Assembly (NCBI GenBank): GCA_964016885.1
Contig: OZ024743.1
Coordinates: forward strand, 13,640,001 to 13,704,000
Length of the DNA stretch: 64,000 nucleotides
Direction: 5' to 3'
Origin: Eledone cirrhosa
Lineage: Eukaryota
The position numbers and the translations under genes were made by a program. Under the pieces are notes generated by a model. It was not told the DNA's origin. It did no database searches and was given only the letters and a program-made list of their open reading frames with translations. Numbering within the stretch: position 1 is the first letter of the stretch; the number at the start of each line of letters is the position of its first letter. This document shows, piece by piece, positions 4,150 through 64,000 of this stretch.

Positions 4150-4757
4150 CCAAGGAGGCAGAGGAGTTGATGCAGGAGGTGGAGACTGTATCGCCGAGAA
4201 TGAATGAGATTAAGACGAAGTATCTGGTGGAGAATATTAAGAAGCCAGAGAAGATTATGAATGTACGCGGGAAGCCGCTAGAATTGGTTAAGGACTTCCT
4301 GTATCTGGGAGCAAAGATTGGAAACATAGAGGATGATGTAGTTGAGAAGAAGAGCAAAGCCTGGGGGGGGGGGGGGGGGTGTGCCACAGATTGAGATCGG
4401 TGTGGGAGTCGGACCTTCGTAAGGACCTACTGATCCATCTCTTCGTTGCTACAGTGGAGTATGTGCTGCTGTACAGGTCTGAGACTTGGACACTGACATG
4501 AAGCTCACTAAGATGGGAGATGGGTGCTATACGAGAATGCTGAGGATGGCTATGCACATTAATCAGTATAAACTGAGGATGAAGAACTCAGAGCTGTACG
4601 GGAGCCTCCCAAAAGTTACCACTAAAATAACACAGGGCCAACAGGTTAGCTGGACATGCTCACCGACATGCAGAGTTGGCACTGCACTCAGTGCTCCTGT
4701 GGGAGCCCCTGCACGGACACACTAGAAGAGGGAGACCGAGGTTGACATATGTCCTAA
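4150..4757 (+). mobile_element. RTE-clade LINE, degenerate 3' fragment
   Basis: LELVKDFLYLG, LFVATVEYVLLYRSETWTL, DGCYTRMLRMA, RLAGH and LLWEP..GHTRRGRPRLTY across frameshifts; typical RTE post-RT C-terminus. Confidence 0.8.
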
Positions 4758-4834
4758 GGACAGGCACATGTATGTGTGTGTATATATGTGTGACTATATA
4801 TAGTCACACATATATACACACACATACAGTGCGT

Positions 4835-5743
4835 GCTATAAGTGATAATGCGCAACATATGCTGAGACTACAGCCTCTTCAGATATTAGTAAATGTTGAA
4901 AACATCTAGTCACCGTATATGAGACATCCGTTCCGCATCTCGTCTCTTTGACAGAGCTGCTGCCATGATTCAATCAAAGACAAAGACTGGGCGCCTGGCA
5001 TCTGGATAATTGTCCTGGGCTCCATGTCTCTACCAGTTTGCAAAGGCGGTCAATGAAATTCCACTCTAGAGTTCTAGAAAGGAATTGCCGTGGGCAGGTT
5101 AGAACATCGAAGCCAGGACCTATGATCAACTTCCAGAATTCCCTTGCTGGACAGTTCTCCATGCACTCGTCTAGTGTCTGTGCATTACTGGCTTGTGGAA
5201 TTTTTTCGAACAGCTATTATTGCCTCTAGAGCAGATCCAGCTATCGACCATGCCCATTGTGAAAATCACCCTTCCACCTACATTTGGTCAGGAAAGGTAT
5301 GCAGTTTTCGTCTGCCCGGTTGAGAGGTGGACGTTGCTGAAACGAATGAAGACAAACACTTTTATATTCGGCCAAGCTCCCATCAACTTTTTCAACTTCA
5401 ACTTGGAAAGAAAGGGGAAGATGGAGTGGGAAATGATACACCTCAGTTAATTTGTTAAAAGGTGTGCAAATGTAGCGAGGATCACCCGTGTGATAAGCCT
5501 ATTCAGACTGTACACTTCTAGGCCGGCTAGTGAGGAGAGCAAAGGGACACGCTTCTAGGGTGTTCTTGGTGAGTATGTTAGTTTAGGATTAGTGGGATTC
5601 CTAAGGCGGCCTTGGGTGGTACTGCCATTACTGAGGAATGTTATTGCTATACAGGTTTTACTCCATTTTTATGTAAACCCCTACCGTCGCAGCTTTTTGT
5701 ATTGTCCCCTATATGTCGGCCCTTGTGGCCAATAAATGAAATC
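4835..5743 (+). mobile_element. Old, decayed 5'-truncated Tx1-like element (relative of the adjacent intact copy)
   Basis: HMLRLQPLQ, PHLVSLTEL, PGPMINFQNSLAGQ and EQIQLSTMPIVKITLPPTFGQERYAVFVC align by eye to the C-terminus of ORF2 8137-11556. Ends GGCCCTTGTGGCCAATAAATGAAATC followed by ATTATT. Confidence 0.85.
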
Positions 5744-5761
5744 ATTATTTGTTGTAATAGT

Positions 5762-5764
<3 letters not shown>

Positions 5765-5794
<30 letters not shown>
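5765..5794. repeat. (ATT)n tract at the 5' junction of Tx1-A
   Basis: Ten ATT units immediately before GAATGCC. Confidence 0.95.
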
Positions 5795-6007
5795 GAATGC
5801 CATGGTTGACGGAGGCTCGGCTCTGTAAGGTATAGTAATTTTTAACCGTTGGAACAATTGTAAATTGTTTAAAACTTGAACCAAATTGTTGATAAAGACA
5901 CCCTCCTCCTCGTGAGAGGGGTCTTTCTGTCCGTTATTTGGCCCTTCGGGGTTGAATAACCAGTTGTTGGGGTTTTGTACCCAAAATTTCATTTTAAACA
6001 AAAAAAC

Positions 6008-8101
6008 ATGGCTACGAAAAAGAAATTTCATACGTCACTCCCACTCATTCCGTCTTCTTCTTCCTCAATCATCACTACAGCAGAGAGAAGATTGTCTCTC
6101 TCCCTCCCTTCTTTAAATGTGTCTCTCTCCCTCCCTTCTCTTTCGCAAGTGACGAAAGAAAAGAAAAGTCTCGTGCAAAGCGTGCAAGGTTTCTCCACGA
6201 CGACGACAGCGACGAAACAGGTGTGCGGGAAATACGAAAACCCAGTTCATTCGTCTGACGTCAGGAATAATAGCAGTAGCAGCCGTAATAACAACAGCAA
6301 CAGTGACAATGAAAACAACAGTAGCAGCCGCAACAGCATCACCAGCAGCATAAACAACAACAGCATTAGCAGCAGCAACACCAACAACAACCACAGCAAC
6401 AGCGGCGGAGGCAGTAGTCGTAGTACCTGCAGCAACAACAAAAGTACCAGCAGCTCTGACGACAACAACAACAGCAGAGAAAAACCAATCTCATTTGCAG
6501 GTATTGCGAAAAACCTGGAAACAATCCTCATAACAAATGAGGAATTAGAGGAAGCGAAGAAGATGGTGACCAAGAACGGACACCGAGCAATCTGCAAGGC
6601 AGCGAAAAATTTTTTCGAAACCCAAGAGCACTGTACGGTCACGTACCGTACAGTAAGTACAAAATCCCGTAGGGTGGAAAGAGCCACAGAGGCCCAAATA
6701 CAAAAAGCCTTGGGGTCTGTGTGGCAGCGGAAAACGCACATCACCCGAGGCAAAAAATATGCCACCGTAGACGTACTTTTTGCCACACCCCAGGAGGCAA
6801 AGGCCCAATCAGTAGTGACCCTAAGGAGCGAGGAAATGGTGTTGGTGCCCTCCTACTGTGGGCAAAAAATTGTGAGGGTCAAACTGACCCACGTCCCCCC
6901 CGGAATGACCCCTTCTTGGCTGGCCGCGTCTGTCCTCGTCGGAATCGAGGACAAAACAACTGTACTGCAAGTACAGAAAAAAGTAAGAGAAGATTGGGTC
7001 GGCTCCTCCATTGAGATGCTAATCCAAACCAACCAGGAGTGCATCGAAGCTATCCCGGATGTGATAGACTTCGATAACGGCACTCAACTGCCCATAAGTG
7101 TTGAGGGCAAACGCCCGAAATGCTTTCGCTGTGGATCGAAGACTCACCTCAGGGCCTTCTGCAACGAGAAGACCCTGAGAAAGGAGAAAACCCCCCTCCT
7201 TCCGAATCCGGCTCCACGGCTACCAGCAACAGGACAAGCGGCAACCAGGAACGATAGGCCCGTGGCACCCATACCCACTCCACGGAAATCAAAAACAGCA
7301 GCAGCAGTGGAAATACTAACAACAACAACAGCAATACCAAATGCAGCTGCAACAGAGACTCCAGTGCAAACATCACCAACAACAACAAGTGAAAGAGTGG
7401 AGTTGGTACCCCTCCCCGACCTCACAGAATCAGACATGGAGTGTGAGGTGGGAGAGAGATGGCAAAAGGTCGTAAGAAGGCACAAACGCAGAAGCAGCGC
7501 ATCGTCGCCTTTGAAAAGTGAGGAAAGAAATGAGAAAAGGGTAAAGTCTACTGCAAAGAGACCCACAGCAGCAACAACACCAACACCATCACCACCCACA
7601 CTAGCGCCACCATCACCACCGGCGACAACCCCACCGCCAACAACACCTTCAACACCACCACCACAAGCACCAACATCGCAAACACAACAACAAAACACAC
7701 ACACCCAGCAACAACGACAAGAAAATAGCAGAACCACACCCCACCCCCAGAAAAACAAATGCACGGCAATAAATACACACAACAAGAAACTAATGACTTA
7801 CATAATTGAACACACAGACATTTCACAACAGGACTACATAATACCAGCACCAATCAAAACGCCAACTAACATAAGACTGCTAAAAATAGCACAGAAACAA
7901 TACACAAATATTAAAACGAAATTCCCCAACGCAGTTGGTGATTTCAGGGACCTAGGAGGAACCATCAATCGAAGAGTATACTCAGACATTCTCTTAGAAG
8001 AGCCGACGACCAGCCGAAGGGACGATTCAACGGTCCCTTCACCAGACGATCAAGTGAAAAGGGATGTAAAAACCATCCCTCCTCTACCAAAAGTACGGTA
8101 A
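6008..8101 (+). CDS. Tx1-A ORF1, gag-like nucleic-acid-binding protein
   Basis: First ATG at 6008. CCHC knuckle CFRCGSKTHLRAFC; low-complexity N/S-rich and P/T-rich arms; core homologous to ORF1 of the 53 kb and 60 kb copies (ISVEGKRPxC). Confidence 0.9.
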   Translation: MATKKKFHTSLPLIPSSSSSIITTAERRLSLSLPSLNVSLSLPSLSQVTKEKKSLVQSVQGFSTTTTATKQVCGKYENPVHSSDVRNNSSSSRNNNSNSDNENNSSSRNSITSSINNNSISSSNTNNNHSNSGGGSSRSTCSNNKSTSSSDDNNNSREKPISFAGIAKNLETILITNEELEEAKKMVTKNGHRAICKAAKNFFETQEHCTVTYRTVSTKSRRVERATEAQIQKALGSVWQRKTHITRGKKYATVDVLFATPQEAKAQSVVTLRSEEMVLVPSYCGQKIVRVKLTHVPPGMTPSWLAASVLVGIEDKTTVLQVQKKVREDWVGSSIEMLIQTNQECIEAIPDVIDFDNGTQLPISVEGKRPKCFRCGSKTHLRAFCNEKTLRKEKTPLLPNPAPRLPATGQAATRNDRPVAPIPTPRKSKTAAAVEILTTTTAIPNAAATETPVQTSPTTTSERVELVPLPDLTESDMECEVGERWQKVVRRHKRRSSASSPLKSEERNEKRVKSTAKRPTAATTPTPSPPTLAPPSPPATTPPPTTPSTPPPQAPTSQTQQQNTHTQQQRQENSRTTPHPQKNKCTAINTHNKKLMTYIIEHTDISQQDYIIPAPIKTPTNIRLLKIAQKQYTNIKTKFPNAVGDFRDLGGTINRRVYSDILLEEPTTSRRDDSTVPSPDDQVKRDVKTIPPLPKVR

Positions 8102-8136
8102 GTGGTCTTTCCCATCTTTTCCACTCTATTTTAAAC

Positions 8137-11100
8137 ATGACCTCACTCAGAATAGGCAGCATAAATGCGCGTGGCTTGGGGTCGTCATGGAAGCAGGGTC
8201 ACCTGCTCAACGACCTCAGGTCACTAAACATAGATGTAGTGGCCATCAGCGAGACCAGAATCTCCGAAGCACGGGCCTTCGCACCGATCTTCGGCGGCTT
8301 CGATGTGTACGCATCTCCCAGCCGTCCTGGATCCGGTGGAGGAGTTGCTGTGCTTTTTCGGAGAGGTTTGGATCTCGCCATACGGGCCATCTTCCTGGAC
8401 CCAGAGGGTAAGCTGGTGGTGCTGGACGTGACCAGCGGAGACGGGCAAGCTTTCAGGCTAGTGGCCGTCTATGCCCCGACAGGAGCAGGGCGGCCTGATT
8501 TCTTCCGGCGTCTGGAGACCTTTCTTGGAACGTCCCGCTCTTTAGTGTTAGTGGGCGACTGGAACGGGATCTTAGATGCACGCTGGGACTGTGTGGGATT
8601 AGCGGATAGGGGTGGAGGGTGCAAGAGCCTCACCAACCTGCTCAGGCGTTTTGAACTGTCTGACAGGTACCGATTGGATTTCCCGAATGTGCCAATGTGG
8701 ACTTGGACAAACCGCATAGGGTCATCCAGATCATATCTAGATAGAGTATTTTGTAGGGAAATAGATAGGTCTAGCATAGGCTGTCCACAATTCAAGATAG
8801 TCAGCTACACGGACCACAAATTCGTGATCTGTGTGCTTGACTTAGATAGGCTTCATAGACGAGGACCCGGCTACTGGAAGCTAAACGCGTCCTTACCAGC
8901 GCGCAAGGCCTACAGAGACCGGATTAGCGAACTAGTTAAGCGGGCGTTGACGGGGGCCATCGTCAACAACAAGTGGTGGTTTGCTCTGAAAAGAGCGATT
9001 AGAATAGAATCGATTAGGTTTAGTAAGGCTTTAGCAATAGAGAAAAATAGAGCAGAGGGAGAACTAGTTAGAAAATTAGACGAGGCGCTTAGCAAAGGCA
9101 TTGCGACCGACGTGCTTGCGGCGAAATTGGCCCTTGACCAATTCTTCAATGCAAAGCACGAAGGCTGCGTTGTCAGAGCTAGGGTGCGTGCTCTCAGACA
9201 CGAGGGGACGAAAGCCGTTCAATGGGCCCGAGTGGCGGAGGCGCGTCGTGGCAACAAAGCCACGATCCGGTCTTTGGTGGACCACGACGGGCGCATGCTA
9301 CTCGATCCCGGGCAAATGTGTGAAGCTTTTCAGCGACACTTCGCTCAGCTGTTCGGGGGCAGCGGGGGGCCGGGTAGAGGGATGGACTTTAGTGTCTACC
9401 TCGACGGACTGCCGCGGCTCTCGGCCACTGAGGCGAAGTGTTGCGAAAAGCCGATAACAGCCGCTGAAGTACGGGAGGCAATGACTGGCTGCACAAGGGG
9501 TAAATCGCCTGGTTTGGATGGTCTGCCCTATGAACTTTACGTACAGATGCCAGACTTGTTCGGAGGCCTCTTGGCGGACGTCTACTGCAACTGGCAACAG
9601 AACGGGAGAATTCCCAGTTCTGTGAGCCGAGGAGCGGTGGCACTGCTGAGAAAGGATCCGAACAAGGGGGATAACATAGACAATTTCCGGCCCATAACTC
9701 TGCTAAACACAGAGTTTAAGATTTTGGCCAAGGTGCTAGCAAAGAGGTTGGCGCTTGTCGTTGGTGGTCTGGTGGGAGAGGCGCAGACATGCGCCATTCC
9801 CGACAGATCCATCCACGACAACCTCCACCTCATGCGATACATCGTAGAGAGGGTAGCTAGGGAACCTGGCACGGGTGGGTCCTTGATCAATTTAGATCAG
9901 TCGAAAGCTTTCGATAGGGTCGACCATCGTTACCTAGCGGCAGTCCTGAGGGCGGCTGGCTTTGGGCCCGTCTTCAGAGGCTGGATCGCTGCCATGCACA
10001 GCGACATCTGCTCTGTGGTGAGAGTGAACGGTCACCTGTCGGAACCGTTCAACATCATGCGCTCGGTCCGCCAAGGATGTCCCCTCTCGTCCCTCTTGTA
10101 CGTATTGACTCTCGAGCCATTACTGCACAAACTGGAGACGTTGAGGGGAGTCCCGCGCGAACTAGGATGCGGAAGATCCGTGTCAGCATATGCGGACGAT
10201 GTCACCGTAGTGGTGTCGAACGCCAAACACATCGAGGCGATCGGCACTACACTAAGAGAATACGAAGCGGTGACAGGAGCAATGATCAACCAGGAAAAGT
10301 CAGTGGGCCTGCAGCTCGGCACCTGGAGAGGCAGGTCCATGCCGTCCAACAGCGTCGTCGGGCGCTGGACGGACGGACCGGTTAAATTGCTAGGGGTCTG
10401 GTTCGGTCCGGACCTCCAGACGGACAAAAACTGGGACGAGGTGACGAGCAGGGTGGCTTCTCTCACCCAGAAATGGGCGGAGAGGAAGCTATCCCTGAAA
10501 GGTCGAGCGGAGGTGGCTAACGCGTACATCGCGTCTGTCATCTGCTACCGCCTAACCGTCGTACCTTGTCCTAAGCCTCGCCTGACTGCGCTGGAGCGTT
10601 TGCTCTTTCGCTTTTTGTGGAAGGGACGTGCTCCGATGGTCAGGCGGTCCATCTGTTGTCAACACCCGCTACGTGGAGGGCTGGGCATGCCGTGGCTGAT
10701 GATGCGCAGGCACGCGCTCAGGCTACGACATCTCCACCTCTTCCTCGACGGTGATCAGGTGTGGTCGCCGTTTGCTAGACGCGTTTTTCCCCAGCTCGTT
10801 TCCTTGACGGAGCTGCAGTCCTGGGTCAAGCGAAGACCGAGAGGGAGCGCCTGGAGACTGGAATGTCTTCAGGCGCTCACAGCCCTCGACCAATCGGGCA
10901 ATGTGATCGGTGGAAGCTCCACCTCGGCGTTCTATAGAGGATTAGTGGAGGGGAAGAGCGACGACGTACTTGGGGAAACTCTAGGCGTCGACGAAAATCA
11001 ACTAGCCAATCTCTTCGGAAGAACTTTCGGGCCGGGGCCTATGGACAACTTCCAGAAATCTCTGGCCTGGCAGTGCTACCGAGGAGCCTTGCCAGTTCGG

Positions 11101-11556
11101 GATAAACTCTACAGGCATGGAGGTGCCGTCAGCCGGGCATGTCCGAGATGCGCGCAGGGCGACGAAACCGTCCTGCACGCACTCGTCCAGTGTCCGAAAA
11201 TTGCTGACTTGTGGGTTTATGTCGAACACCTGCTGTCGCGTTTAGGACGGATCCAGCTATCATCTGAGTCTATCGTGAGGATTGCCCCGCCCTCCTCCTT
11301 TAGCCGGGAAGGGCAGGCAGTTTTTATCTGTCTGGTGGCCATGGCGAAAGAGATAGTATGGTGGACACGTTTGAAAGGGCTGAAGACGAGCACTTACCTC
11401 TTCGGTGATGCTCTGATTGACTTTTTCAAATTTCATTTGAAAAGGAAAATCAGAGTAGAGAAGGAAGTGCTCTCTTCCCAGCATTTTGTTGAAAGATGGG
11501 TGAGAGAAGCAAGAATGGCCCGAGTGAATGGGCCGACTCTGAGTATATATCTGTAA
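8137..11556 (+). CDS. Tx1-A ORF2: AP endonuclease, reverse transcriptase and C-terminal Cys/His zinc finger
   Basis: APE motifs SINARGL, ISET, VYAP, GDWN, SYLDR, TDH. RT motifs KSPGLDG, FRPITLLN, DQSKAFDRV, RQGCPLS, YADD. CPRC..ETVLHALVQC. 1139 aa uninterrupted. Confidence 0.97.
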   Translation: MTSLRIGSINARGLGSSWKQGHLLNDLRSLNIDVVAISETRISEARAFAPIFGGFDVYASPSRPGSGGGVAVLFRRGLDLAIRAIFLDPEGKLVVLDVTSGDGQAFRLVAVYAPTGAGRPDFFRRLETFLGTSRSLVLVGDWNGILDARWDCVGLADRGGGCKSLTNLLRRFELSDRYRLDFPNVPMWTWTNRIGSSRSYLDRVFCREIDRSSIGCPQFKIVSYTDHKFVICVLDLDRLHRRGPGYWKLNASLPARKAYRDRISELVKRALTGAIVNNKWWFALKRAIRIESIRFSKALAIEKNRAEGELVRKLDEALSKGIATDVLAAKLALDQFFNAKHEGCVVRARVRALRHEGTKAVQWARVAEARRGNKATIRSLVDHDGRMLLDPGQMCEAFQRHFAQLFGGSGGPGRGMDFSVYLDGLPRLSATEAKCCEKPITAAEVREAMTGCTRGKSPGLDGLPYELYVQMPDLFGGLLADVYCNWQQNGRIPSSVSRGAVALLRKDPNKGDNIDNFRPITLLNTEFKILAKVLAKRLALVVGGLVGEAQTCAIPDRSIHDNLHLMRYIVERVAREPGTGGSLINLDQSKAFDRVDHRYLAAVLRAAGFGPVFRGWIAAMHSDICSVVRVNGHLSEPFNIMRSVRQGCPLSSLLYVLTLEPLLHKLETLRGVPRELGCGRSVSAYADDVTVVVSNAKHIEAIGTTLREYEAVTGAMINQEKSVGLQLGTWRGRSMPSNSVVGRWTDGPVKLLGVWFGPDLQTDKNWDEVTSRVASLTQKWAERKLSLKGRAEVANAYIASVICYRLTVVPCPKPRLTALERLLFRFLWKGRAPMVRRSICCQHPLRGGLGMPWLMMRRHALRLRHLHLFLDGDQVWSPFARRVFPQLVSLTELQSWVKRRPRGSAWRLECLQALTALDQSGNVIGGSSTSAFYRGLVEGKSDDVLGETLGVDENQLANLFGRTFGPGPMDNFQKSLAWQCYRGALPVRDKLYRHGGAVSRACPRCAQGDETVLHALVQCPKIADLWVYVEHLLSRLGRIQLSSESIVRIAPPSSFSREGQAVFICLVAMAKEIVWWTRLKGLKTSTYLFGDALIDFFKFHLKRKIRVEKEVLSSQHFVERWVREARMARVNGPTLSIYL

Positions 11557-11817
11557 ACTAAAGGTGGAAAACTGGGAGAGGGCACTTGCCTTGGTGGTCA
11601 GGGTCATTGTGGCTTTTTACTGGGCTTTCTCCACAAATGTCCCTCCGAAGTCTCCCCCCTATTGGGGAATTTTTCATTGTTATTTTCATTGTTATTTTTG
11701 TTACATCCTCTGTTTTTGTTTTTTTTACACGCAGAAATGCCCATTTGTACCGTCCTGCATTGTCCTGCACTGTCCTTAATGTCTACTTTATGTAAACCCT
11801 TGTGGTTAATAAAGAAA

Positions 11818-11931
<114 letters not shown>

Positions 11932-50355: not shown

Positions 50356-51980
50356 ATTATTTCTCATAGTCTACAATATGAACGGCAATAAGAAAACGAA
50401 AAATAAAAAAAAAAATAAATGATTGAATGACTATAAAATAATCAGGAAAAACACTACAGATATTTAAACACACAACAGGAATAGGAAGGCAAATGATCTA
50501 GGGTCACAGTACAATGGGAGGGGGAAGGTGAAAAGGTGATGTGCTCTGGGCGTAGGGAGCGACGGTGCTTGGGCTTTGCCCCACGGACAGGAACAGTTGA
50601 TGTAAATAATTATATACGCGCTTCAAGGAATTTCCTTTTCGGGCATTCACGTAGTCTCCCACTGTAATCAACCTATATGGCAATTGAATAGTATACATTA
50701 TAATATATTCGTAGATAGGCTATGCGGTTCAAATTCGCGCATAATTTATAAAATATCTGAGTAAATAATCCACTAATTGTAAGTATGCACACGTACATAC
50801 ACGCACTCACACTCACACACCCGTACACACACACACCCGTACACACACACACCTACACACCACACTCACACACACGTATATATACACATACACATATACA
50901 TATACATATGTACGTATGGGTTATATCGAACATTAATAATAATATTAGATTCGTTTGTAAACAAACGGCCCGATTAAAGCTGAGCCGTGCAAATGACCCA
51001 TCGTCATCTGTTTGTTCAACACTGGCATCGAGGAACAATCAACATGTAATTAATTACTATATTCATTAATTCTACCTCATTTCGATGTAACAGGCATTAT
51101 AATACGGGAGAAATGGATATTATATGAGGTTATTATAACAGACGTTGAGGCAACAAATATAAAGCAGGGTTAGGGTTAGGGAGTCCAGGTTTGAAGCGGA
51201 ATCATTATTTTTCTCAATTCATTGGGTTGTTCTAGATTAAGGCCTATGTTAGTTGATTGGTAGTATAATAACAAATATGCCGTCTTCTTCGGCATTTTGA
51301 CTTTTAAAATACAATTTCTCTATTGCTTTACATTAAATTGAATCATTTATATGTAGGGAAAACAGATACGATTAATATTCGTCACTTATACAAAACAGCT
51401 TACGTAAACACACACACAAACACACACAAACACACACTCCCTCTCTCTCACACACACTCCCTCTCTCTCTCACACACACACACTCTCTCTTTCTCACACA
51501 CACACGCACAAACAAATGTATATATATATTTATACGTGTTTGTTGGTGTATCTATATAGTTTTTCTAAAAGCATTAATGCTTGAGTTATCAGATGATCGC
51601 CTGAACATAATACATAAAGCCTTCTAGATAATATAAAATTTCAAAGAGACAAGGATATTCACTTCCGTTTACTTTAAATAGCCTAATAAATATTTACATT
51701 TCAGACATAAAGCTACAAACCTTCCTACATATTAATCTAACAGTTATGGATACATTTATATATTTACTTACGCTAGTATTTAAGATTCGTAGGACAGGAT
51801 ATGACCCTACACAGGAAATACAGATAGTAATAAAAGTTTGCAAGTAATTACGAATATCATAAGATATAAGATATTATTGAACTCAAATAAATAACTGAAC
51901 ATGTTACTCATTGTCAACTATAGCAGATTAACCCTTTATAAAAAACGTTTTATATGTATACCTGTTGTAAAATAGGCAAC

Positions 51981-52073
51981 CAGATATACTATATAATTTT
52001 ATGTGAGAATATGTTTCAACAGCCCTCATGCACAATCACTCACAAACAACTGAACTCACATGCCACCACTTTA

Positions 52074-52135
<62 letters not shown>

Positions 52136-52301
52136 TTATCTATAGACTCCACCGCAACATTCTATAGAGCGCTGGTACGCAGCAGGTGCGACGACGCCCT
52201 CGGAGAAGCAGATATACTATATAATTTTATGTGAGAATATGTTTCAACAGCCCTCATGCACAATCACTCACAAACAACTGAACTCACATTCCACCACTTT
52301 A

Positions 52302-52395
<94 letters not shown>

Positions 52396-52561
52396 TTATC
52401 TATAGACTCCACCGCAACATTCTATAGAGGGCTGGTACGCAGCAGGTGCGACGACGCCCTCGGAGAAGCAGATATACTATATAATTTTATGTGAGAATAT
52501 GTTTCAACAGCCCTCATGCACAATCACTCACAAACAACTGAACTCACATGCTACCACTTTA

Positions 52562-52646
<85 letters not shown>
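51981..52646 (+). repeat. Tandem triplication of [flank + (ATCT)n + 5' tip of Tx1-C]
   Basis: Units start at 51981, 52209 and 52469. Units 1-2 contain TAGACTCCACCGCAACATTC...CGGAGAAG matching 58457-58522. Confidence 0.92.
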
Positions 52647-52647
<1 letters not shown>

Positions 52648-52881
52648 AATAATCTAGCTGTCGTCTGTTCTACAGTGTGGGTGTCATTCACTTCGCACAG
52701 AAGTTTTGTTCAAATTTATTGAGGAAATTTTGTGAGTTCAAACTTAATTTTGATACAATTGTGTAGCTTGACCCTCCGTCTGAACTGTCAGGCGGTGGGT
52801 CAGCTCATCTTTACCCCTCCTAGAGGTGAAAAACCTGTTTTAAAAAAATTTTGTGTAAAAAATTTCAATCGTCTAACAGAA

Positions 52882-54769
52882 ATGTTAAACGCAGCGAACG
52901 AAAATAGTGGTGGGGGGACAGCGGTAAGAGTTGTAAGCTCGCATGCTTTAGTCCTCCCTTCCTTCCCAACTAACGTCATAGAGAAGGAAGGAAAAATGAA
53001 AATAAAAACGGACGAATCTGCGGAGAAAAAATTAAATGACGAAAACATAAATCTGGACTTGGATTCCAACAACGAAAAAAAAAAATTTGAAAAATTGCAT
53101 GACAATACTAATAACACAAACAAAGACACAACAAAAAAATAACAGTTGAAAATAACACCATATCAGAAAACAAAGCAGACGACAAGATTTCATTTGCACA
53201 GAAAACAAAGAAATCTTTGACTTATATAGCGGAAAACATTTCAGATGTGGTACGAAGGATCACGGACGCCAAACAATACATAAGTGAAGGTGAGAATGGT
53301 ATTTTATTGGTAAAAATGCCTCAAGAATTCACGAAAGACATTGAAAGCCGAACGGTCAAGTTTCGGACCATCAACAACAGTACAAAAAAACCTGAACAGC
53401 CTTCTCAAGCAGATATCAAAACAGTACTCACAGAAGTACTGAATGAAACAACTTTCATAAGAAAAGACAGACTGTATGGAAGCCTAGCAATTATCATGAA
53501 GAACGAATCGGCGGCAAAAAAATGTGCTTTGTCACCGATTCGTTCGAAAAATTTCACCTTTTATCCATCTTATATGGGTAAAAGAACTCAACGCATATGG
53601 CTGGATGCAATGATGCCAGATGTGGACTACTGCTGGCTCATAGCTGGCTTCATCGATCCAGTGAATGACAACGTGATTTCCATTGGGAAAACCACAGGCA
53701 ATGCGTTCAGTGGAACAGGTATAGAGCTGGTAGTACAAATGAAGCCTGAACGCATCGCCCAAATACCCGACAGAATCCTATTAGAGGACCACGGGTATAT
53801 AAACATTAGCGTGGAGGGGAGAAGGCCGTCCTGCCATATCTGTGCAGGCAGAGGGCACCTGAAGGCCGCTTGTCCCCAATTCAACAAAAAGAAAACCCTG
53901 CTACCAACACCAGCTCCACCACCACCACCACAACAGATAAACAAACAACAAATCTCAGTCCCACCCAACCCGTCCCTCAGTAAAACCACAACACAAACAG
54001 TCACAACACATTACCCCAAAACAAAATACAGGCCCACCCAACCTCTCACTCAATAAAACAACACAACCACCGCAGACACAACACACAACACAGTCTAACA
54101 TAGTGACATCCATCTCCCCCACAAAGAAAACCAACACGGAAACATTACCAGCAAACATACCTCTTCTCTCCAACACTGAAGATAACCCAACGAATTCGGA
54201 GGAAGAAACGGAGTCCTTCAGACAGATTAAAAGGAAAAAAAGAAAACATGTGCAAAACACACAAGGACAAACAACCCCCACCCAAATCGCAACACAATCC
54301 AACAAAACAGAAAACACCCCTCCAGCAACAAACAAAACCAAACCTGCCCCTCCCCTCTTCGAAACACTCACACCATCGGAAAAAAAGACATTACACTATA
54401 CTTACATCAACGGAAACAATAATAAATTAAATGAACTCATATACAATAATCCTTCGGTACAAACCGAAGGTGTAAACTTTGTTTCGTCAGAAAACCACCC
54501 ACATTTAAAACTAATAAAAATCCCAATGAACCTCTACCAAAAACTAAAAAAAGGATTTTAAGGAGGACGTAGGACCACCCTCTGTCAAACCCATAAACCG
54601 CGTCGTAGTAAAAAGCTTTCCCCCTCCCCTTCCCCTCCCCAACACAACTCCAAACACCCCAACCCCACCACACACTGACGACCCCACACCACCACAAGAC
54701 ACCCCTTCACCCAACACCCCCGACCCCATGGAAGTCGTGCAACCCGAACCCCGGGAAGCGGAAAGGTAG
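52882..54769 (+). pseudogene. Tx1-B ORF1 (frameshifted)
   Basis: Pieces 52732-53142, 53217-54056, 54103-54561 and a tail to TAG at 54769. Knuckle CHICAGRGHLKAAC; collinear with Tx1-D ORF1. Confidence 0.85.
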
Positions 54770-54802
54770 GTCTCTACACTCTCCTTTGGCTCTGCCGCCC
54801 AC

Positions 54803-57800
54803 ATGGATGTGTTAAGAGTAGGATGTTTGAATGCACGTGGCCTGGGCTCAACTTGGAAGCAAGCAAAGCTTCTAAATGACCTCAGGTCATGTAGTATAAA
54901 TGTAATGGTTATCTGTGAGACTCGAATCAGCGTCATGCGGCAGCTGGCCCCCACCTTCGATGACTTTGAGGTGCATGCATCTCTCTGTCAACCTGGAGGT
55001 GGGGGTGGGGTTGTCGTACTGCTGCAAAAACACCTGGGTCTTGCCGTACAGGTTGTGCACTCGGACCCGGAGGGTCGTTTGTTGGTGCTAGACGTTGGCA
55101 GTAGTGAAAGTGCGGCCTTGAGACTGGTCGCCGTCTACTCCCCTTTCGGAGCTGAACGGCCCGACTTCTTCCAATGTTTGGAGACTTTTCTGGGAACGTC
55201 GCGTTCCCTGCTTCTAGCGGGGGATTGGAATGACATCCTGGATGCACGTTGGGACTATGCAGGAGCATGTCCTAATAGAGGGGGGTGTAACAGCCTCAAG
55301 GGGTTACTCGACCGTTTTAACTTGGTCGATAGATATCGACTAGATTTTCCAACTGTGCCTACCTGGACTTGGAGAAACCACAGTGGTCAATCTAGATCGT
55401 ACTTAGATAGATTCTTAGTTAGAAGTAAGGATAGGGACATATTAAGCTGTCCAGAAATGCGCACGGTTGGCTACACGGATCACAAATTAGTGACCTGCGT
55501 GGTCAATCTCGAGAAAACACATAGACAGGGTCCCGGTTACTGGAAACTTAATTTGTATTTACCGGCAAAAGAGACTTACAGAAACCGGATTAGCAGATTA
55601 GTTAAGGAGAGGTTGACGGGTGCAATCGTCAACAACCGATGGTGGGCATCTCTCAAAAGAGAGATTAGAACAGAATCAATAAGTTATAGCAAGATGTTAG
55701 CTGCCGATAGGAATAGAAACGAGAAAGAATTAACAGGTAAATTAGAAGAGGCAATCAAGAGCGAAGATGTGGCCAGAGTGCTGGCATCGAGGACGGCCTT
55801 GAACCAGTTTTTCGATGCAAAGCATGAAGGCTGCGTCATTCGAAGTAAAATACGTGCTCTAGGTAATGAGGGGGCCAAAGCCGTTGGATGGGCCCGCGTG
55901 ACAGAAGCTAAGAGTGGAAATCGATCCACCATCCGGTCGTTGCAAGACGAAGATGGACGAGTGATCCGGGAGCCTAAGCAGATGTGCGAGGCCTTTCAAA
56001 AGCACTTTGCCCGATTGTTCGGGGGAGGCGAGGGTCCGGGCCGGGGCGTGGATTTCGGTCCATACCTCGACGGCCTGCCGCGTCTCTCGAACAAAGAGGC
56101 AGAGTCCTGCGAGGGACCAATCTCGGCTGATGAGATCGGAGATGCGCTGAGCCAATGCAGCAGACGCAAATCTCCAGGTCTCGATGGTATACCTTACGAA
56201 CTTTATTTAGCAATGCCGGTCTTCTTCTCCGAACTCCTCGAAGCGGTCTACTGCAATTGGGAGCAGAACGGGAGAATTCCTTGTTCTGTAGCCAAGGGCA
56301 TAGTCACGCTGGTGAGGAAGGACGAGAACAAGGGGGATAGTATAAATAATTTTCGGCCCATAGCCCTGCTAAACACAGAGTTAAAGATTTTGGCCAAGGT
56401 GTTAGCAAAGAGGTTGGCGCTTGTCGTGGGTGGCCTGGTGGGAGATGCGCAGACATGTGCTATCCCATCCAGGTCCATTCACGATAACCTCCACCTCATG
56501 CGATACATCATAGAGAGGGTTGGCAACAAACCCGGCTTCGGTGGGGCCCTGATCAACTTGGATCAGTCTAAGGCCTTCGATAGGGTCGACCATGGTCACC
56601 TGGATGCGGTGCTAGCGGCGGCTGGGTTCGGTCCTGTTTTCAGAGGCTGGATCACTGCCCTACATAGCAACCACATCTGTTCTAGGATCAAGGTGAACGG
56701 CTACCTTTCGAAGCCGTTCGAAATCACACGATCCATTCGACAGGGGTGCCCTATCTCCTCCCTTCTGTACGTATTGACTCTCGAGCCTTTACTGAGGAAG
56801 TTGGAGTTGTTGCAGGGTATCCCCCTGGAACCAGGATTGAGCAAACGTAACAGTAATGGTATCAACCGACTCGGAGATCGAGGCGATCGGTACCTTACTG
56901 GAGGAGTACGAAAGGTTGTCAGGAGCGAAACTGAACCGGGAAAAATCCATCGGGCTGCAACTCGGAACGTGGAGAGGCAAACCGATGCCTCCTGACGGTG
57001 TCGTCGGACACTGGACGGAGGGCCCGGTAAAGTTGCTTGGGGTCTGGTTTGGACCGGACCTCCAGGTGGAAAAGAACTGGAACGAGGTTACGAACAAGGT
57101 GTTTGCACTAACCCAGAAATGGGCCAAGTGTAAGCTGTCCCTAAAAGGCCGGGCGGAGGTGGCGAACATTTACATAGCGTCCGTCACTTACTACCGCCTG
57201 ACTGTCGTGCCTTGCCCTAAGGAAACACTCACCACCATGGAACGCATGCTCTTCCAATTTCTTTGGAAGAAGCGTCCTCCTATGGTGAGAAGATCCATCT
57301 GCTGCCAACAACCTTCGAAAGGAGGGCTGGGGATGCCGTGGTTGATGATGCGTAGGCACGCATTAAGGCTACGGCACCTACAGGTATTCCTCACTGGTCA
57401 ACCGGTGTGGGCTCCGTTCGTGAAACGAGCCTTTCCGAGACTCGTCTCACTCACCGAGCTACAGTCCTGGGTCAAGCAAAGATCCGGAAAACTGGGAGAC
57501 TGGCACACTGAGTGTGCTCCGGCGCTCAGGGCTCTCTGGCAAGCGGGCCAGGCCATCGGTGGAGAATCCACCTCATCATTCTATAGAGGGCTGGTGGCTA
57601 GCAGGGGCGATGACACCCTTGGAGAGTCGCTGGACATGGAAGAAGACGAACTGGCCAGCCTGTTCGGTAGGACTTTCGGCCCAGGACCAATGGACAACTT
57701 CCAGAAGTCACTGGCCTGGCAGTGCTACCGAGTGGCTCTACCCGTTCGAGAGAGGCTCTACAGACACGGGCGCCCGGGCAGGGATCCCTCAAAAAAGATT

Positions 57801-58217
57801 TGCCCTAGATGCGTGCGTCACGAAGAAACCGTAGCGCATGCATTGGTGCAATGTCCGGGCGTGGCTGATCTGTGGGGCTACGCCGAACAACTGCTGTCGC
57901 GGGTGGCGCCGATTAAATTGACCGCCGAGTCCGTGATGACAATCAAACCGCCTCCCCTCTTCACAAAGGAAGCAAAGGCGGTTTTTCTGTGCGTAATAGC
58001 CATGTTGAAAGAGGTTGTTTGGTGGACACGATTGAAAGGTCTGAGGTCAGGCAACTTCCTCTCTGGCCATAGTCTGGTCTACTTCTTCCGATATCACTTC
58101 GGAAGAAGGATAAGAATGGAGAGAGAGGTGCTTGGCCACAGGCAGTTTTATGAAAGGTGGGTGATAGTGGCGAGAATGGCTCGTGTAAATGGGCCTTCTC
58201 TGTATACCATCCTGTAG
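54803..58217 (+). pseudogene. Tx1-B ORF2 (APE-RT-zinc finger), split by a 23-bp deletion of the YADD motif
   Basis: ORFs 54803-56995 and 56856-58217 are collinear with Tx1-A ORF2; junction at 56845/56846. Confidence 0.93.
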
Positions 58218-58457
58218 GTAAAGAAGTAAAGGAGAGGGGAGCACCTTCTCCATGTGCTCCCCGGGCAAAGGATTGCACACTTTTTCGGAGGTGTGTGCAA
58301 CCCCCATCACGTCCCCTCCCTTTTGAGGTTATTTTCGATTATTTTCATGTTACACCCTTTTTACTCGATTATATGTAAACTTCCCCTTTGTATTTGTCCC
58401 TTCTTTTTATGCCTTTATGGTAAATAAAGAAATCTATCTATCTATCTATCTATCTAT

Positions 58458-59375
58458 AGACTCCACCGCAACATTCTATAGAGGGCTGGTACGCAGCAGG
58501 TGCGACGACGCCCTCGGAGAAGCCCTAGACATGGAGGAGGACGAACTGGCCAGCCTGTTCGGTAGGACATTCAACCCGGGACCTATGGACAACTTCCAGA
58601 AGTCCCTGGCCTGGCAGTGCTACCGAGGGGCTTTACCCGTTCGAGAAAGGCTCTACAGACACGGGCGCCCGGGTAGGGACCCCGCCAAAAAGATCTGTCC
58701 CAGATGCGTGTGCGACGAGGAAACCGTTGCACACGCATTGGTACACTGCTCGGGCGTAGCCGATCTGTGGGGCTATGTCGAACAACTGCTGTCAAGGGTG
58801 GGACCGATCCGGTTGACCACCGAGTCTATTGTAATGATCAAGCCGCCTCCCCCCTTCAAAGATGAAGCAGAGGCGGTGTTTCTGTGCGTAATAGCCATGG
58901 CGAAAGAGGTTGTATGGTGGACGCGTCTGAAAGGACTGAGGTCAGGCACCTTTCTCTCTGGCCAACAACTGGTCCGTTTCTTCCGATATCATTTCGGAAG
59001 AAGGATCAGGATGGAGAGAGAGGTGCTGCACCCCAGCCGTTTCTATGAAAGATGGGTGAAAGTGGCGAGAATGGCCCGTGTGAATGGGCCTTCACTCTAC
59101 ATCAGACTATAGGTGAGGAAGATGAAAGACCAAGGGAGCACCCCTTCTCTGTGCTCCTGAGGAGAAGGGTTGCACACTTTTTTCGGGGGTGTGTGCGACC
59201 CCCCAAGGCGCCTCCTCTCTATTGAGGATTTTGTTATAAATTTTATTTTTTGTTATATCTTATTTTATTTTTATATTTTGTTATTGCCTCCTCCTTATTG
59301 AGGACGCCTTTTTGTGTAAACTCCCCCCTTTGTACTTGTCCCACTTTTGATGCCCTAGTGGCAAATAAAAGAAAC
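58458..59375 (+). mobile_element. 5'-truncated Tx1-like element (Tx1-C), bounded by (ATCT)n
   Basis: Open ORF2 C-terminus to 59112 (CPRC..HALVHC), 3'UTR ending AATAAAAGAAAATC-like (AATAAAAGAAAC), then ATCTATCT. Confidence 0.93.
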
Positions 59376-59407
<32 letters not shown>

Positions 59408-59619
59408 GTCTAACGTGTGGAATATCGCCGGTAAGTTTTTTGTTAATTTCTATGCAAAAAACCGATCTAATTGTTTGAAAAAAATACAACACTTTGTAGA
59501 TTAACCCCCAAGCTGAATTGTCAGCTGGGTGGTAATCCCATTTTTCGCCCCTGTAGGGGCGAAAATTTTATTTAAAAGTTTGTCTTAAAATATCAAATTT
59601 TACAAAGTAAAAAAAAAAC

Positions 59620-61497
59620 TTGAGCAACACTAGAACGCTGGAGAACGTTAATAGTGAAAAGAGAGAGAAAGAGGCAGATATTAACGTTATATCTGCTTCT
59701 GCTGCTATGGACGTTGCCATAGATACTGTCACAAAAGAAAAAAATATATCAACATTTGAAAATGTTACAATTTCTACCGCCGAAGCGGAGAAAAATGACA
59801 ATAACACACGGGAAAACACGGCAAAAAAACCCATTGACATACATACACATGAAAAAGACATCAACAACTCTACAGATACATCTACACATAAAATTTCCAA
59901 CAACGATAACATCATTATTAACAACAACATCACACAAAAAAAGAAAATGTCTTTTGCTGACACAGTCAACAAGAAACAAGATTTTATAAATCTTGATATC
60001 TCCAACGCAAGAGATATGCTCCAGCAAGGGAGAAAATTTGTAACTTTCGAAGAAAGAGGTGGGTTTAGAATTAACTCACCCCTTGAAATAAAGGAAGACA
60101 CAAACCGCCGATCAGTCACTTTTAGGACTGTGTCAAATTCGTCAAGAAAACCGACATTTGTTAATCAGTCAGATATAGAAGATTCTTTCAAGGAGATTCT
60201 AGGAAATGTCGATTTTCTCCAGCGAGGAAAACAGTACGGAAGCGTTTCCGTACTGTTTAAAAGCGAGACACTGGCCCCAAAAATCTCTGTGACACCAATA
60301 GTGTCAAAAGCATACACCTTTTTCCCTACATACATGGGGAAAAGGACACAAAAAATAAAAATAAAAAACATACCTCCAAGCATTAACATCTGGTGGATCT
60401 TGGCTGGCTTCGTAGAGCCAGAAACAGACACAATACTTTCGATACGAAAATCCATTCGACAAAGGTGGGCGGGCACCGATTTGGAGATTCTGTTGCAAAT
60501 GAAACCGGAGAGAATCTCCAAAATACCCGAAAGAGTCGTTATTGATAATAACAACAAAATAAACATTTCGGTAGAAGGAAGAAAATTTCACTGCTTTCGC
60601 TGTGGTAGCACATCTCACATAAAAGCCTCTTGTCCACAAACACACAACAGCAACATCATAAAAAAAACGCTATTACCAACACCAACACCAAAACAACCAC
60701 CACCACCACCACAAGTACAACGACAGACGAAACGAGCAACCACACCAAAACAAACAGACACTCAACCAACAACAACAGAAAAAACAGAGACAACACCCCT
60801 GAAGAACACATCCCCACTCCATCCCACTCCATCAAACACTACCACAAACACACATACCGAAACACCACCACCACCACACAACATACCCTTACCCCACACA
60901 CCTGACGATGATTATTCATCGACGGATGAAGCTGCTTCTCCTTCTTTAAGTGAAGAAGAGGGAGAACCGCGTAAATCCAAAAAACAAAAAAAGAGACACC
61001 ACAAAACCCCCAAAACTCCAATCACCAACACCAACACACAACCACAGACACAAACAACAACACAAACAACACCACAGTCAAACACCCCCCTATCAGCAAA
61101 ACCAGCACCAACACCACCCCAAACACAAGCACCCACCATAAAAAGAAAACTCCCAGGTGAACAACAAACTAAATCAATACAACAAAAACACAAACAACAA
61201 TACGCATACATCAACACAAACAACAAGAGTTTGATGGAGGTCATCTCCCAAAACCCCAAGGTGGAGACGGAGGGCAAAACTTTCGTCAAGGCAGAATCGT
61301 CTCCACACCTTAAACTTATAACGGTTTCTATGGAAACCTATAAAGACCTGAAAATTAAATTTTCACAGGACGTGGGCAACCCCTGCCACAAACCCATCAA
61401 CCGCGTCCTGTTGAAAGGTTTCCCCACCCCACCCAACACCCCATCCAGCACCCAAATGGAGATTGAACAACCCGATCTCCAGGAAACGAAAAGGTAA
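59620..61497 (+). CDS. Tx1-D ORF1
   Basis: Open frame (first ATG at 59707); knuckle CFRCGSTSHIKASC; P/T-rich arm. Confidence 0.9.
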   Translation: MSNTRTLENVNSEKREKEADINVISASAAMDVAIDTVTKEKNISTFENVTISTAEAEKNDNNTRENTAKKPIDIHTHEKDINNSTDTSTHKISNNDNIIINNNITQKKKMSFADTVNKKQDFINLDISNARDMLQQGRKFVTFEERGGFRINSPLEIKEDTNRRSVTFRTVSNSSRKPTFVNQSDIEDSFKEILGNVDFLQRGKQYGSVSVLFKSETLAPKISVTPIVSKAYTFFPTYMGKRTQKIKIKNIPPSINIWWILAGFVEPETDTILSIRKSIRQRWAGTDLEILLQMKPERISKIPERVVIDNNNKINISVEGRKFHCFRCGSTSHIKASCPQTHNSNIIKKTLLPTPTPKQPPPPPQVQRQTKRATTPKQTDTQPTTTEKTETTPLKNTSPLHPTPSNTTTNTHTETPPPPHNIPLPHTPDDDYSSTDEAASPSLSEEEGEPRKSKKQKKRHHKTPKTPITNTNTQPQTQTTTQTTPQSNTPLSAKPAPTPPQTQAPTIKRKLPGEQQTKSIQQKHKQQYAYINTNNKSLMEVISQNPKVETEGKTFVKAESSPHLKLITVSMETYKDLKIKFSQDVGNPCHKPINRVLLKGFPTPPNTPSSTQMEIEQPDLQETKR

Positions 61498-61538
61498 GTG
61501 CACCTTTCGTCCTTTTTCTCCAACTTTTCTTCACCAAC

Positions 61539-64000
61539 ATGGCTGGTTTACGAGTTGGAACCGTGAATGTGCGTGGCCTAGGGATGCCCTGGAAACAGGG
61601 CCAACTTTTAAACGACCTTAGGTCACACAGTATGGATGTGATAGCCATCACCGAGTCCAGAATCCACAACAGGCAGCAACTAACACCCATCTTCGACGAC
61701 TTTGAGATCTACGCATCTCTCTATCAGCCAGGAGGTGGAGGTGGAGTGGCTGTTATGTTTCGGAAGAACCTGGACGTCGGAGTACAGCAAGTACACTTGG
61801 ACCCGGAGGGTAGACTGGTAGTCCTAGACGTGAACAGTATCGGAGGTGGAGCCTTCAGACTGGTGGCCGTTTATGCCCCGACCGGGCAATCGCAATCACG
61901 GCCAGACTTCTTTAAGCGTCTAGAGTCTTTTCTGGGAACGTCTCGCTCCTTACTTTTAGTGGGGGACTGGAATGGTATCCTAGATGCACGATGGGACTAT
62001 GTGGGAGCATGTCCCAGTAGAGCGGGGTGCAACAGCCTCAAAACTTTAATCGGCCAATTCCAACTGGCCGATAGGTATCGACTGGATTTCCCGACTGCAC
62101 CACAGTGGACGTGGGTAAACCGCAGTGGGACATCTAGATCGTATTTAGATAGGTTCTTCATTAGAGAAAGGGACAAGGATATGTTAAGCTGTCCACGAAT
62201 GCACATGGTTGCCTATTCAGATCACAAGTTAGTCGTCTGCTTAGTCAACCGTGATAGAATACATAGACAGGGTCCCGGATACTGGAAGCTGAACGTGTCG
62301 TTGCCGGTACGTACAGCTTACAGTGAACGGATAAGTAAACTAGTCAAGCAACAGTTAACGGGAGCCATCGTCAACAATAGATGGTGGTACTCTCTCAAGA
62401 AAGCAATTAGAATAGAATCAATAGGGTATAGCAGAGAGTTAGCCTTAGAGAAAAACAGAATAGAAAGAGAACTAGTAGCCAAGGTAGAGGAGGCACTTAG
62501 AAGTGGCAACGCGGCTAGAGTGTTAGCGTCGAGAACGGCACTGGACCAGTTCTTCGATGCGAAACACGAAGGCTGCGTGGTCAGAAGCAAAACACGTGCT
62601 CTAGGAAACGAAGGAGCGAAAGCTGTCAGCTGGGCCCGAGTGGCGGAGGCAAAAAGTGGCAACAAGTCCACGATTCGGTCTTTGAAAGACCAAAACGGAC
62701 GCGTGCTACTTGACCCCAAGCAAATGTGCGCGGCCTTTCAGCGGCACTTTGCGCGACTGTTTGAGCAGAACGACGGTGAGCCGAACGGGGCAATGGACTT
62801 TAGTTTATACCTCGACGGCCTGCCGCGTCTCTCGAACACGGACGCCGAGTTCTGCGAAAGACCGATCACGGACACTGAGATACGGGACGCTCTGGGCCGC
62901 TGCGGGAAACGCAAGTCACCCGGTCTAGATGGTCTACCCTACGAATTTTACATAGGCATGCCGGACTTGTTCTCTGGCGTCCTCGAAGCCGTCTACTGCA
63001 ATTGGCAGCAGAACGGGAGAATTCCCAGTTCTGCAGGCAAGGGCGTAGTAACGCTGATCAGGAAAGACGAGAACAAGGGGGACGAAATTAACAACTTCAG
63101 GCCCATAACTCTGCTCAACACAGAGTTAAAGATTTTGGCCAAGGTGCTAGCGACGAGGTTGGCGCTTGTCGTCGAGAACCTGGTAGGGAAAGCGCAAACG
63201 TGTGCAATCCCGACCAGGTCCATACACGACAACCTCCACCTCATGCGATACATCATAGAGAGGGTGGGTAGTAAACCCGGCTTCGGTGGGGCTCTGATCA
63301 ACTTGGATCAGTCTAAGGCATTCGATAGGGTCGACCATCGATACTTGGAAGCGGTTCTCAAGGCGGCCGGTTTCGGTCTCGTGTTCAGAGGATGGATCGA
63401 GGCGATGCACACCAGCATCTGCTCGAGGGTCAAGGTGAACGGCTACCTATCGGAGCCGTTCGCAATCACGCGTTCCATTCGACAGGGATGCCCTCTCTCC
63501 TCCATTCTGTATGTATTGACTCTAGAGCCACTACTGCGGAAATTGGAGCTGTTGCAGGGCATCCCCCTAGAACCGGGACTGCGCAAAGCGGCGTCGGCTT
63601 ATGCCGACGACGTGACAGTAATGGTGTCGAGCACCTCGGAAATCGGGGTGATCGGCAACATACTGAAAGAATACGAAACGCTGACGGGAGCAAAACTAAA
63701 CCCAGACAAGTCTGTCGGTTTGCAACTCGGTACGTGGAGAGGCAAACCGATGACATCCGACAGCGTCGTTGGACGCTGGACGGACGGACCGGGGAAATTG
63801 CTCGGGGTCTGGTTCGGTCCAGACCTCCAGGTGGAGAAAAACTGGAAGGAGGTCACGGCCAAGGTGTTTGCACTCACTCAGAAGTGGGCAGAGTGCAAAC
63901 TGTCCTTGAAAGGTCGAGCGGAGGTGGCGAACACTTTCATAGCGTCCGTCATCTACTACCGCTTGACTGTCGTGCCTTGTCCCCGTGAACACCTCGCCAA
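61539..64000 (+). CDS. Tx1-D ORF2 (APE plus RT), incomplete at the window edge
   Basis: MAGLRVGTVNVRGL.., GDWN, SYLDR, SDH. YADD codon TAT at 63600 is in frame with the ATG at 61539. Absent from the ORF track, consistent with no stop before the window end. Confidence 0.93.
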   Translation, partial: MAGLRVGTVNVRGLGMPWKQGQLLNDLRSHSMDVIAITESRIHNRQQLTPIFDDFEIYASLYQPGGGGGVAVMFRKNLDVGVQQVHLDPEGRLVVLDVNSIGGGAFRLVAVYAPTGQSQSRPDFFKRLESFLGTSRSLLLVGDWNGILDARWDYVGACPSRAGCNSLKTLIGQFQLADRYRLDFPTAPQWTWVNRSGTSRSYLDRFFIRERDKDMLSCPRMHMVAYSDHKLVVCLVNRDRIHRQGPGYWKLNVSLPVRTAYSERISKLVKQQLTGAIVNNRWWYSLKKAIRIESIGYSRELALEKNRIERELVAKVEEALRSGNAARVLASRTALDQFFDAKHEGCVVRSKTRALGNEGAKAVSWARVAEAKSGNKSTIRSLKDQNGRVLLDPKQMCAAFQRHFARLFEQNDGEPNGAMDFSLYLDGLPRLSNTDAEFCERPITDTEIRDALGRCGKRKSPGLDGLPYEFYIGMPDLFSGVLEAVYCNWQQNGRIPSSAGKGVVTLIRKDENKGDEINNFRPITLLNTELKILAKVLATRLALVVENLVGKAQTCAIPTRSIHDNLHLMRYIIERVGSKPGFGGALINLDQSKAFDRVDHRYLEAVLKAAGFGLVFRGWIEAMHTSICSRVKVNGYLSEPFAITRSIRQGCPLSSILYVLTLEPLLRKLELLQGIPLEPGLRKAASAYADDVTVMVSSTSEIGVIGNILKEYETLTGAKLNPDKSVGLQLGTWRGKPMTSDSVVGRWTDGPGKLLGVWFGPDLQVEKNWKEVTAKVFALTQKWAECKLSLKGRAEVANTFIASVIYYRLTVVPCPREHLA

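Follow-up and report, generated by a model that had tools for sequence, protein, structure and literature searches.

The window, a 64,000-nt stretch of Eledone cirrhosa contig OZ024743.1, holds four LINE-type elements on the forward strand, which we call A, B, C and D, and the remains of an older copy. Element A (5795..11819) is full length (about 6.0 kb) and young, and it belongs to a very abundant family. Its first open frame (ORF1, 5960..8101, 713 aa from stop to stop) gave no Pfam match, and a CCHC knuckle could be read from the sequence near 7120. Its ORF2 (8137..11556, 1139 aa) is intact and encodes APE, RT and zf-RVT domains in that order, as found with tblastn and Pfam; the APE domain (8137..8856) contains the WDC motif at 8584 and the hairpin loop at 8704-8733. 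Upstream of A lies the degraded 3' remnant of an old A-clade copy (4933..5743; tblastn matches at 4933-5492, 3' motif at 5726). The gap between the two is an ATT-type tract (5744..5794 by sequence, 5764-5794 in TRF), which is A's upstream target repeat, and repeat finding placed (ATT)22 immediately 3' of the end of A, then (TAG)n (11820..11886). A degraded reading frame with a 'SETWTL' motif, spotted by eye at about 4150-4760, is presumably a remnant of another, RTE-like LINE.

The remaining elements form a head-to-tail run, B-C-D, from 52648 to past the window end. Behind an (ATCT)n tract (52563..52647), element B (52648..58434) is full length but broken, with ORF1 split and ORF2, from 54803, changing frame near 56850. 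An (ATCT)n gap (58432..58458) leads to element C (58459..59375), which is 5'-truncated, lacks the APE and retains the ORF2 C-terminus and 3' UTR only. A further (ATCT)n gap (59376..59403) leads to element D (59403..64000), which continues beyond the window (ORF1 59611-61497; ORF2 from 61539; APE 61539-62267; loop 62112). The D family copy L111 is 5,782 nt long and its 3' end runs into (TATC)n. Relative to its family, the window copy of D carries a private C62Y change (61713) and a 33-nt deletion (about 5240 in L111), and its ORF2 frame is 1042 aa against 1172 aa. Just before B, at 51978-52650, roughly 100 bp of flank, (ATCT)n and the first 70 bp of a truncated C together form a unit that occurs twice, and the doubled unit is followed by a third flank with (ATCT)n and then B. 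This order suggests that C inserted first, that the junction was then duplicated in tandem and that B entered the last repeat, though the doubled unit may instead be an assembly artefact.

The two-ORF layout is present throughout, with an N-terminal APE, RT and C-terminal zinc motif in ORF2 and a CCHC knuckle in the ORF1 frames; for A ORF2 the domains are PF03372, PF00078 and PF13966. In phmmer, A ORF2 matched fish pol-like proteins and proteins named TX1 at 261-326 bits and human L1 ORF2p at 180. From these bit scores, rather than from a tree of curated references, we lean towards Tx1-like LINEs for A, B, C and D. The closest relatives are unnamed proteins (840-913 bits) and an Argonauta protein (1072 bits), and the closest named one is from Argonauta hians (73%). 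An APE-only homologue search returned one fragment, an Atlas search returned RT/APE clusters only, none of them named, and a metagenome scan for flanks of relatives at 50% identity found none. An Octopus sinensis protein model named 'tectonic-3-like' (P0001) holds a piece of the APE, which covers a quarter of the domain at 62%, through either exonisation or an annotation error. Both 5' truncations and target duplications, the hallmarks of target-primed reverse transcription, were found.

An earlier note on this DNA had set the endonuclease of A against those of B and D as a natural target-switch experiment, in which closely related enzymes differing at a few residues would be associated with (ATT)n or with (ATCT)n. 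The peptides on which this was based are real: 9/9 of the quoted APE motifs are in place (A 8311, 8584 and 8704; B 54977, 55250 and 55370; D 61713, 61992 and 62112), although ASLY in D, the result of C62Y, is peculiar to the window copy and the remaining D copies read ASLC. The ORF2s are also collinear, A ORF2 matching D at 69%, B at 66% (in two frames) and the C remnant at 62.5% in tblastn. 'Closely related' and 'a few residues' overstate the case: of about 240 APE positions, A and B share 145, A and D 148, and B and D 158, and in 34 alignment columns B and D agree while A differs. The ORF1s of A and D are about 30% identical over their alignable part. The comparison of A with B and D is therefore confounded and cannot separate enzyme from tail, because APE, tail and ORF1 all differ. 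The hairpin loop is, as had been proposed, the homologue of the L1-EN βB6-βB5 hairpin in an alignment that includes the LTx and LR1 grafts, and it lies between a conserved T and the S ahead of the S-x-x-D motif. With L1 numbering that we count from commonly quoted positions and PMC1950540, the WDC motif of A (8584) would align near L1 R155.

The elements' own sequence ends 6-7 nt past AATAAA, and over the last 20 or so bases A and D differ at one base. What follows is as the earlier note had read it, with the old copy (ending at 5743) and A (ending at 11819) continuing into ATT, and B (ending at about 58434) and C (ending at 59375) into TATC/ATCT; (TATC)n follows the D end just past the window (L111) too. 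The 3' motif quoted for all copies fits the old copy and C only, since the base that should precede GAAA is missing from A and B.

These repeats are targets and not self-made tails, because they stand on both sides of the copies. The 5' junction could be resolved in 16 of the 20 A regions that we fetched, and an ATT run adjoins it in 15/16, including 2/3 truncated copies; the resolved full-length copies have an ATT-type upstream junction in 13/13 cases. In 13/30 copies (for example L004, L006, L007, L011 and L012), A lies in antisense orientation within the (TAA)n tail of a LINE from one of two unrelated families, these hosts having what we take to be R4/Dong-type C-termini, and in 6/30 copies an A is followed by another A. 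Copies of D away from repeats have ordinary duplications and no repeat tail, the pre-insertion sites being deduced from the duplications. RTE- and CR1-type LINEs bear a self-templated microsatellite tail, at the 3' end only and whatever the site. Were the microsatellites here made by the elements in that manner, as tails grown by slippage, no choice of target would be involved. Almost every A 3' end has a repeat, and a full-length D can bear a few TATC bases at its 5' end (L124), as such an origin would allow. The self-templated pattern is nevertheless not matched: repeats flank both sides and adjoin 5'-truncated ends as well (L108, L109, L123, L207 and L211), they are missing at off-repeat sites, and A sits inside the tails of other LINEs. 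We therefore regard element-made repeats as very improbable.

In the 3.0-Gb genome, which has roughly 14,000 APE-bearing copies, about 9,110 ends match the A terminus and at least 2,034 match that of D, as counted with patterns whose last position does not admit C; pattern controls gave 0-12 matches against these thousands. None of the roughly 9,110 A ends continues with NN and TATCT, and none of the at least 2,034 D ends with NN and ATTAT. The A family is young (150/150 hits listed were 100% identical over the last 151 residues). All of the A loci cut out (30/30) continue as (ATT)n, and 100 listed A ends, read by eye, were (ATT)n or off by one or two bases. Two patterns for deviant A ends gave 190 and 244 matches, most of those listed still ATT-like, and in the first 100 of each, read by eye, there was no A lineage with another target. 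In rare A ends the terminal GAAA/AAAC is repeated, or a run of A precedes the ATT tract (e.g. G000:C3:333425455 and C2:300391277), possibly from re-priming or from copied poly(A). Two loci, L101 and L107, combine an A-type ORF2 (96-99% DNA identity) with another ORF1 (43-45% protein identity), and both end in (ATT)n.

The label (ATCT)n proved too loose for the other families. At least three units follow 13/30 D ends and 7/30 C-type ends, and most others have one or two TATCT units: short TATCT follows 11/30 D and 17/30 C-type ends, and the remainder differ. The target of B, C and D is a short TATCT-type motif and not a pure microsatellite. Measured against the published yardstick for target preference, more than 20% of flanks being of one type (PMC4494074, as far as its text was available), A has 30/30 ATT flanks and D has 24/30 TATCT flanks, 13/30 with at least three ATCT units. 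An ORF2 tree annotated with flanking repeats had been suggested as a check, and in 121 ORF2 C-termini, a sample enriched by our own searches, target types split by clade and are not mixed for the A clade, which has 29/30 ATT and one single-base variant, against 0/91 ATT in the other clades. Thus the families partition strictly by target.

A change of target was found within D itself. Ordinary D copies end ...GAAATC-TATCT, and sub-lineages end ...GAAATC-AATAT. The end GAAATC-AATA turned up in 4/20 copies picked by APE identity and in 7 of the first 100 ends; genome-wide, 115 ends read GAAATCAATA (a looser pattern matched 132), and, read by eye, not one of the 100 listed goes into (TATC)n. We examined 46 such rows, dropped three that lacked a D body and were left with 43 distinct copies, which sit at dispersed Y|AATAT sites. 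A duplication of at least 7 nt that starts with AATAT is present in 25/43, and 18/43 lack a duplication that long. Because the duplications begin with AATAT, this motif is part of the target. C or T precedes the duplication in 25/25, against a flank background of 50% pyrimidine. At one minisatellite junction AATAT stands where 105/110 matching units in the locus read AATGT, a single hint of an RNA-templated base. In two full-length AATAT copies, L124 and L288, the duplication is separated from the start of the element by 12-13 additional bases, which are TATC-like in one copy and ORF1-like in the other.

These copies are a lineage and not scattered misses, because linked ORF2 SNPs mark them: the SNPs occur in 8/10, 23/26 and 25/29 of the AATAT copies covered, against 0/16, 0/23 and 0/23 TCTATC copies. 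Picking by a single SNP gave 54 hits, and the 30 cut out comprised 27 TCAATA, 2 TCAATG, one 3'-truncated and 0 TCTATC, so that the new end is present in 29/30 linked-SNP copies. Both classes, TCAATA and TCTATC, are young (median 0.34% from their majority). In L115, L117 and L261, APE residues 1-245 show 0 differences from ordinary D; three further copies have private changes only. The D sub-lineage has changed its target with an unchanged APE. The one ORF2 change shared by this first lineage is D932Y, which is also the only difference between L261 and ordinary D over 1,146 codons, and ORF1 has one Q-to-R change. We considered D932Y as the cause of the switch and rejected it, as it is absent from L270, L277, L347/L348 and a second haplotype. 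This second haplotype is a separate group that has no substitution in common with the first; 6/7 of its loci end TCAAT, and L455 ends TCTATC. Its APE was read in one copy only (L295), which has three substitutions and an 8-codon alignment gap.

The hairpin loop does not predict the flank, as seen from another abundant relative, family E, and from the several loops of the TATCT families. Family E has the D loop NRSGTS and occupies a fixed point in a minisatellite whose tandem unit is 72 bp, and the ATCT-type families have NRSGTS, NRSGSS, NHSGQS and NRSGQS. Across the genome, the correlation of loop with target is weak except at the split of A from the rest. This 72-bp unit is itself part of an element whose inverted ends are flanked by TTAA (we located the 3' end in 9/23 loci and the 5' end in 4/5), and which we take from its TTAA/CCCT signature to be piggyBac-like. 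Family E was downgraded as firm proof of a second switch, since 17/20 copies are full length and share the same 5' junction, and L443, with a 9-nt duplication at the fixed point, is the sole clear truncated copy. It may spread partly as cargo of the inverted-repeat element, and for that reason it lends weak support. Full-length E copies lack about 5-7 bp of the unit (L161, L182, L186, L190, L200 and L431-L450), and the E copies listed cluster toward the ends of large contigs.

The strict partition, the pre-existing repeats and the AATAT switch at an unchanged APE support a model in which the motif used by each family would be set in two steps, a loose endonuclease nick and then pairing of the DNA end with the 3' end of the RNA. 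The bottom strand would be nicked 5' of a purine, giving Y|AATAT or Y|TATCT on the top strand (the phase is uncertain for A), and only nicks whose end matches about five tail bases would prime reverse transcription. The pairing bases would be few and target-derived, in that transcripts would extend beyond AATAAA-GAAA-NN and include a few bases of the DNA flanking the source copy; RNA cleavage typically falls 10-30 nt downstream of AATAAA. Because the tail sequence of the transcripts is read back from genomic ends, the model as a whole is one that we infer, and we put its probability at about 0.6. A bolder form is more tentative, and we would bet slightly against it: that about five RNA bases from the source copy's 3' flank program the integration site, and that new families (ATT, ATCT, AATAT and the 72-bp minisatellite) arise by inheritance of the flank with no change of protein. 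Under the two-step model itself, an off-target source copy would pass its new flank on as the target of its daughters, so that a full-length off-target copy could found a lineage, and the same inheritance would also explain the head-to-tail arrays. The strict use of (ATT)n by the A clade may include a real difference in the APE.

Some observations sit less easily with pairing by the tail. L455 belongs to the second haplotype and yet ends TCTATC. The 18/43 copies that lack a long duplication, the D932Y and Q-to-R changes of the first lineage and the reading of the second lineage's APE in L295 alone also weigh on this side, as do the TRAS1/SART1 endonuclease swap and the effect of hairpin changes on cleavage by TRAS1 and R1Bm. 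Two lineages with one AATAT end are odd if tails are random, and could reflect a shared default of the enzyme or a recombined 3' end. The A lineages have not left ATT, which counts against a model of the tail alone, and at the deep split the APE clade agrees with the target, as an endonuclease that chose the repeat would also predict. Such an enzyme would have hairpin and neighbouring-loop changes by which A cuts (AAT)n and B, C and D cut (AGAT)n. Besides this concordance and the A ends that keep to ATT even among the deviant ones listed, the A-clade loops have I, V or T where others have S, and the loop is a known specificity element of TRAS1 and R1Bm in the text available to us (PMC1919474, PMC2868851). 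It is hard to reconcile with two targets served by an identical APE within D, with the D loop recurring in family E at a different target, or with the several loops that serve ATCT; in the available part of PMC1950540, moreover, L1 point mutations left the nicking pattern as it was, and after a loop graft integration was still at T-tracts. An enzyme acting alone cannot explain the AATAT lineages, although A versus D may still follow it, and overall we consider it unlikely. The APE may contribute at the deep split between A and the rest.

The AATAT lineages might instead have lost their tail, their RNA ending in GAAAUC and poly(A), with YAATAT as the default of the enzyme; the RNA end would then matter without being freely programmable. 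The common AATAT end of two haplotypes fits this, as do the few A ends with A-runs right after the terminus, and AA at +1/+2 would pair with poly(A). A T at +3 (29/29 SNP-picked ends) and at +5 (25/25 duplications) would mismatch it, the SNP-picked copies include no A-tailed junction, and a templated tail fits the one junction whose sequence departs by a base from its target. A lost tail is thus decidedly unlikely, and we retain the two-step model. Of the cause proposed in the earlier note, a few APE residues and/or pairing of the RNA tail with the target, the second part is supported, and the first is unneeded for the switches that can be resolved.

A change of target in LINEs is usually ascribed to the endonuclease, and here a matched pair has the same endonuclease, other last bases and other sites. 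The usable natural experiment is D against D-AATAT, which points to the RNA end; A against D is less useful alone, as enzyme, ORF1 and tail all differ. D is young and abundant with intact ORFs, and with such a pair the share of RNA pairing is testable with donors ending TATCTATC, AATATT and ATTATT. If the tail is causal, it would show a simple way in which site-specific retrotransposons can evolve, and could help in a small way to steer RNA-templated gene insertion; if programming by the flank is true, an APE-type element would be retargetable by an edit of the donor tail.

Microsatellite-targeting Tx1 elements are already known, and the tail-linked switch within one genome is what appears new: in the mostly open-access literature covered, we found no report of these families or of any natural change of target in which the APE stayed identical. 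The available text of an octopus LINE paper (PMC9115989) has no occurrence of 'Tx1'. Known Tx1 targets are (TC)n for Kibi, (TTC)n for Koshi and (TTCC)n/(TTTC)n for crocodilian Tx1, in the portion available of PMC4494074. Like Kibi and Koshi, the families here are APE-type LINEs with a strong microsatellite preference and with differing units in related families. Host and lineage differ, and the targets (ATT, TATCT, AATAT and a 72-bp unit) are not the (TC)n, (TTC)n and (TTYC)n of Kibi/Koshi. That source puts target choice in Tx1 families down mainly to the endonuclease, and a switch with an identical endonuclease is not described in the text available. It also offers a parallel for family E, fixed in a 72-bp tandem unit of a TTAA-flanked inverted-repeat element, in Xenopus Tx1L within Tx1D and Tx1-Mar within Mariner-N4.

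Human L1 is alike in its loose pyrimidine/purine nick, in RNA-primer pairing and in a homologous hairpin of the same length; it pairs through poly(A), whereas the pairing bases proposed here would come from the flank of the source copy and vary between copies. In SART1Bm and R1Bm, priming is made more accurate by RNA 3' ends that resemble the target (AGG in the former, downstream target in the latter), and a terminal AGG lifted accurate priming by SART1Bm from 36% to 76% (PMC7265360, available text). These two and TRAS1 belong to the R1 clade, in which hairpin changes alter cleavage by TRAS1 and R1Bm (PMC1919474, PMC2868851) and exchanging the endonucleases of TRAS1 and SART1 shifted the site of insertion (work cited in the part of PMC1919474 available); here, by contrast, the target moved with no change of endonuclease. 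The two-step model fits that effect of AGG, as it does the sufficiency of four matched bases for L1 priming (PMC3649969, in part) and the Tx1L loop grafted into L1, which changed nicking and kept the integration preference (PMC1950540, in part).
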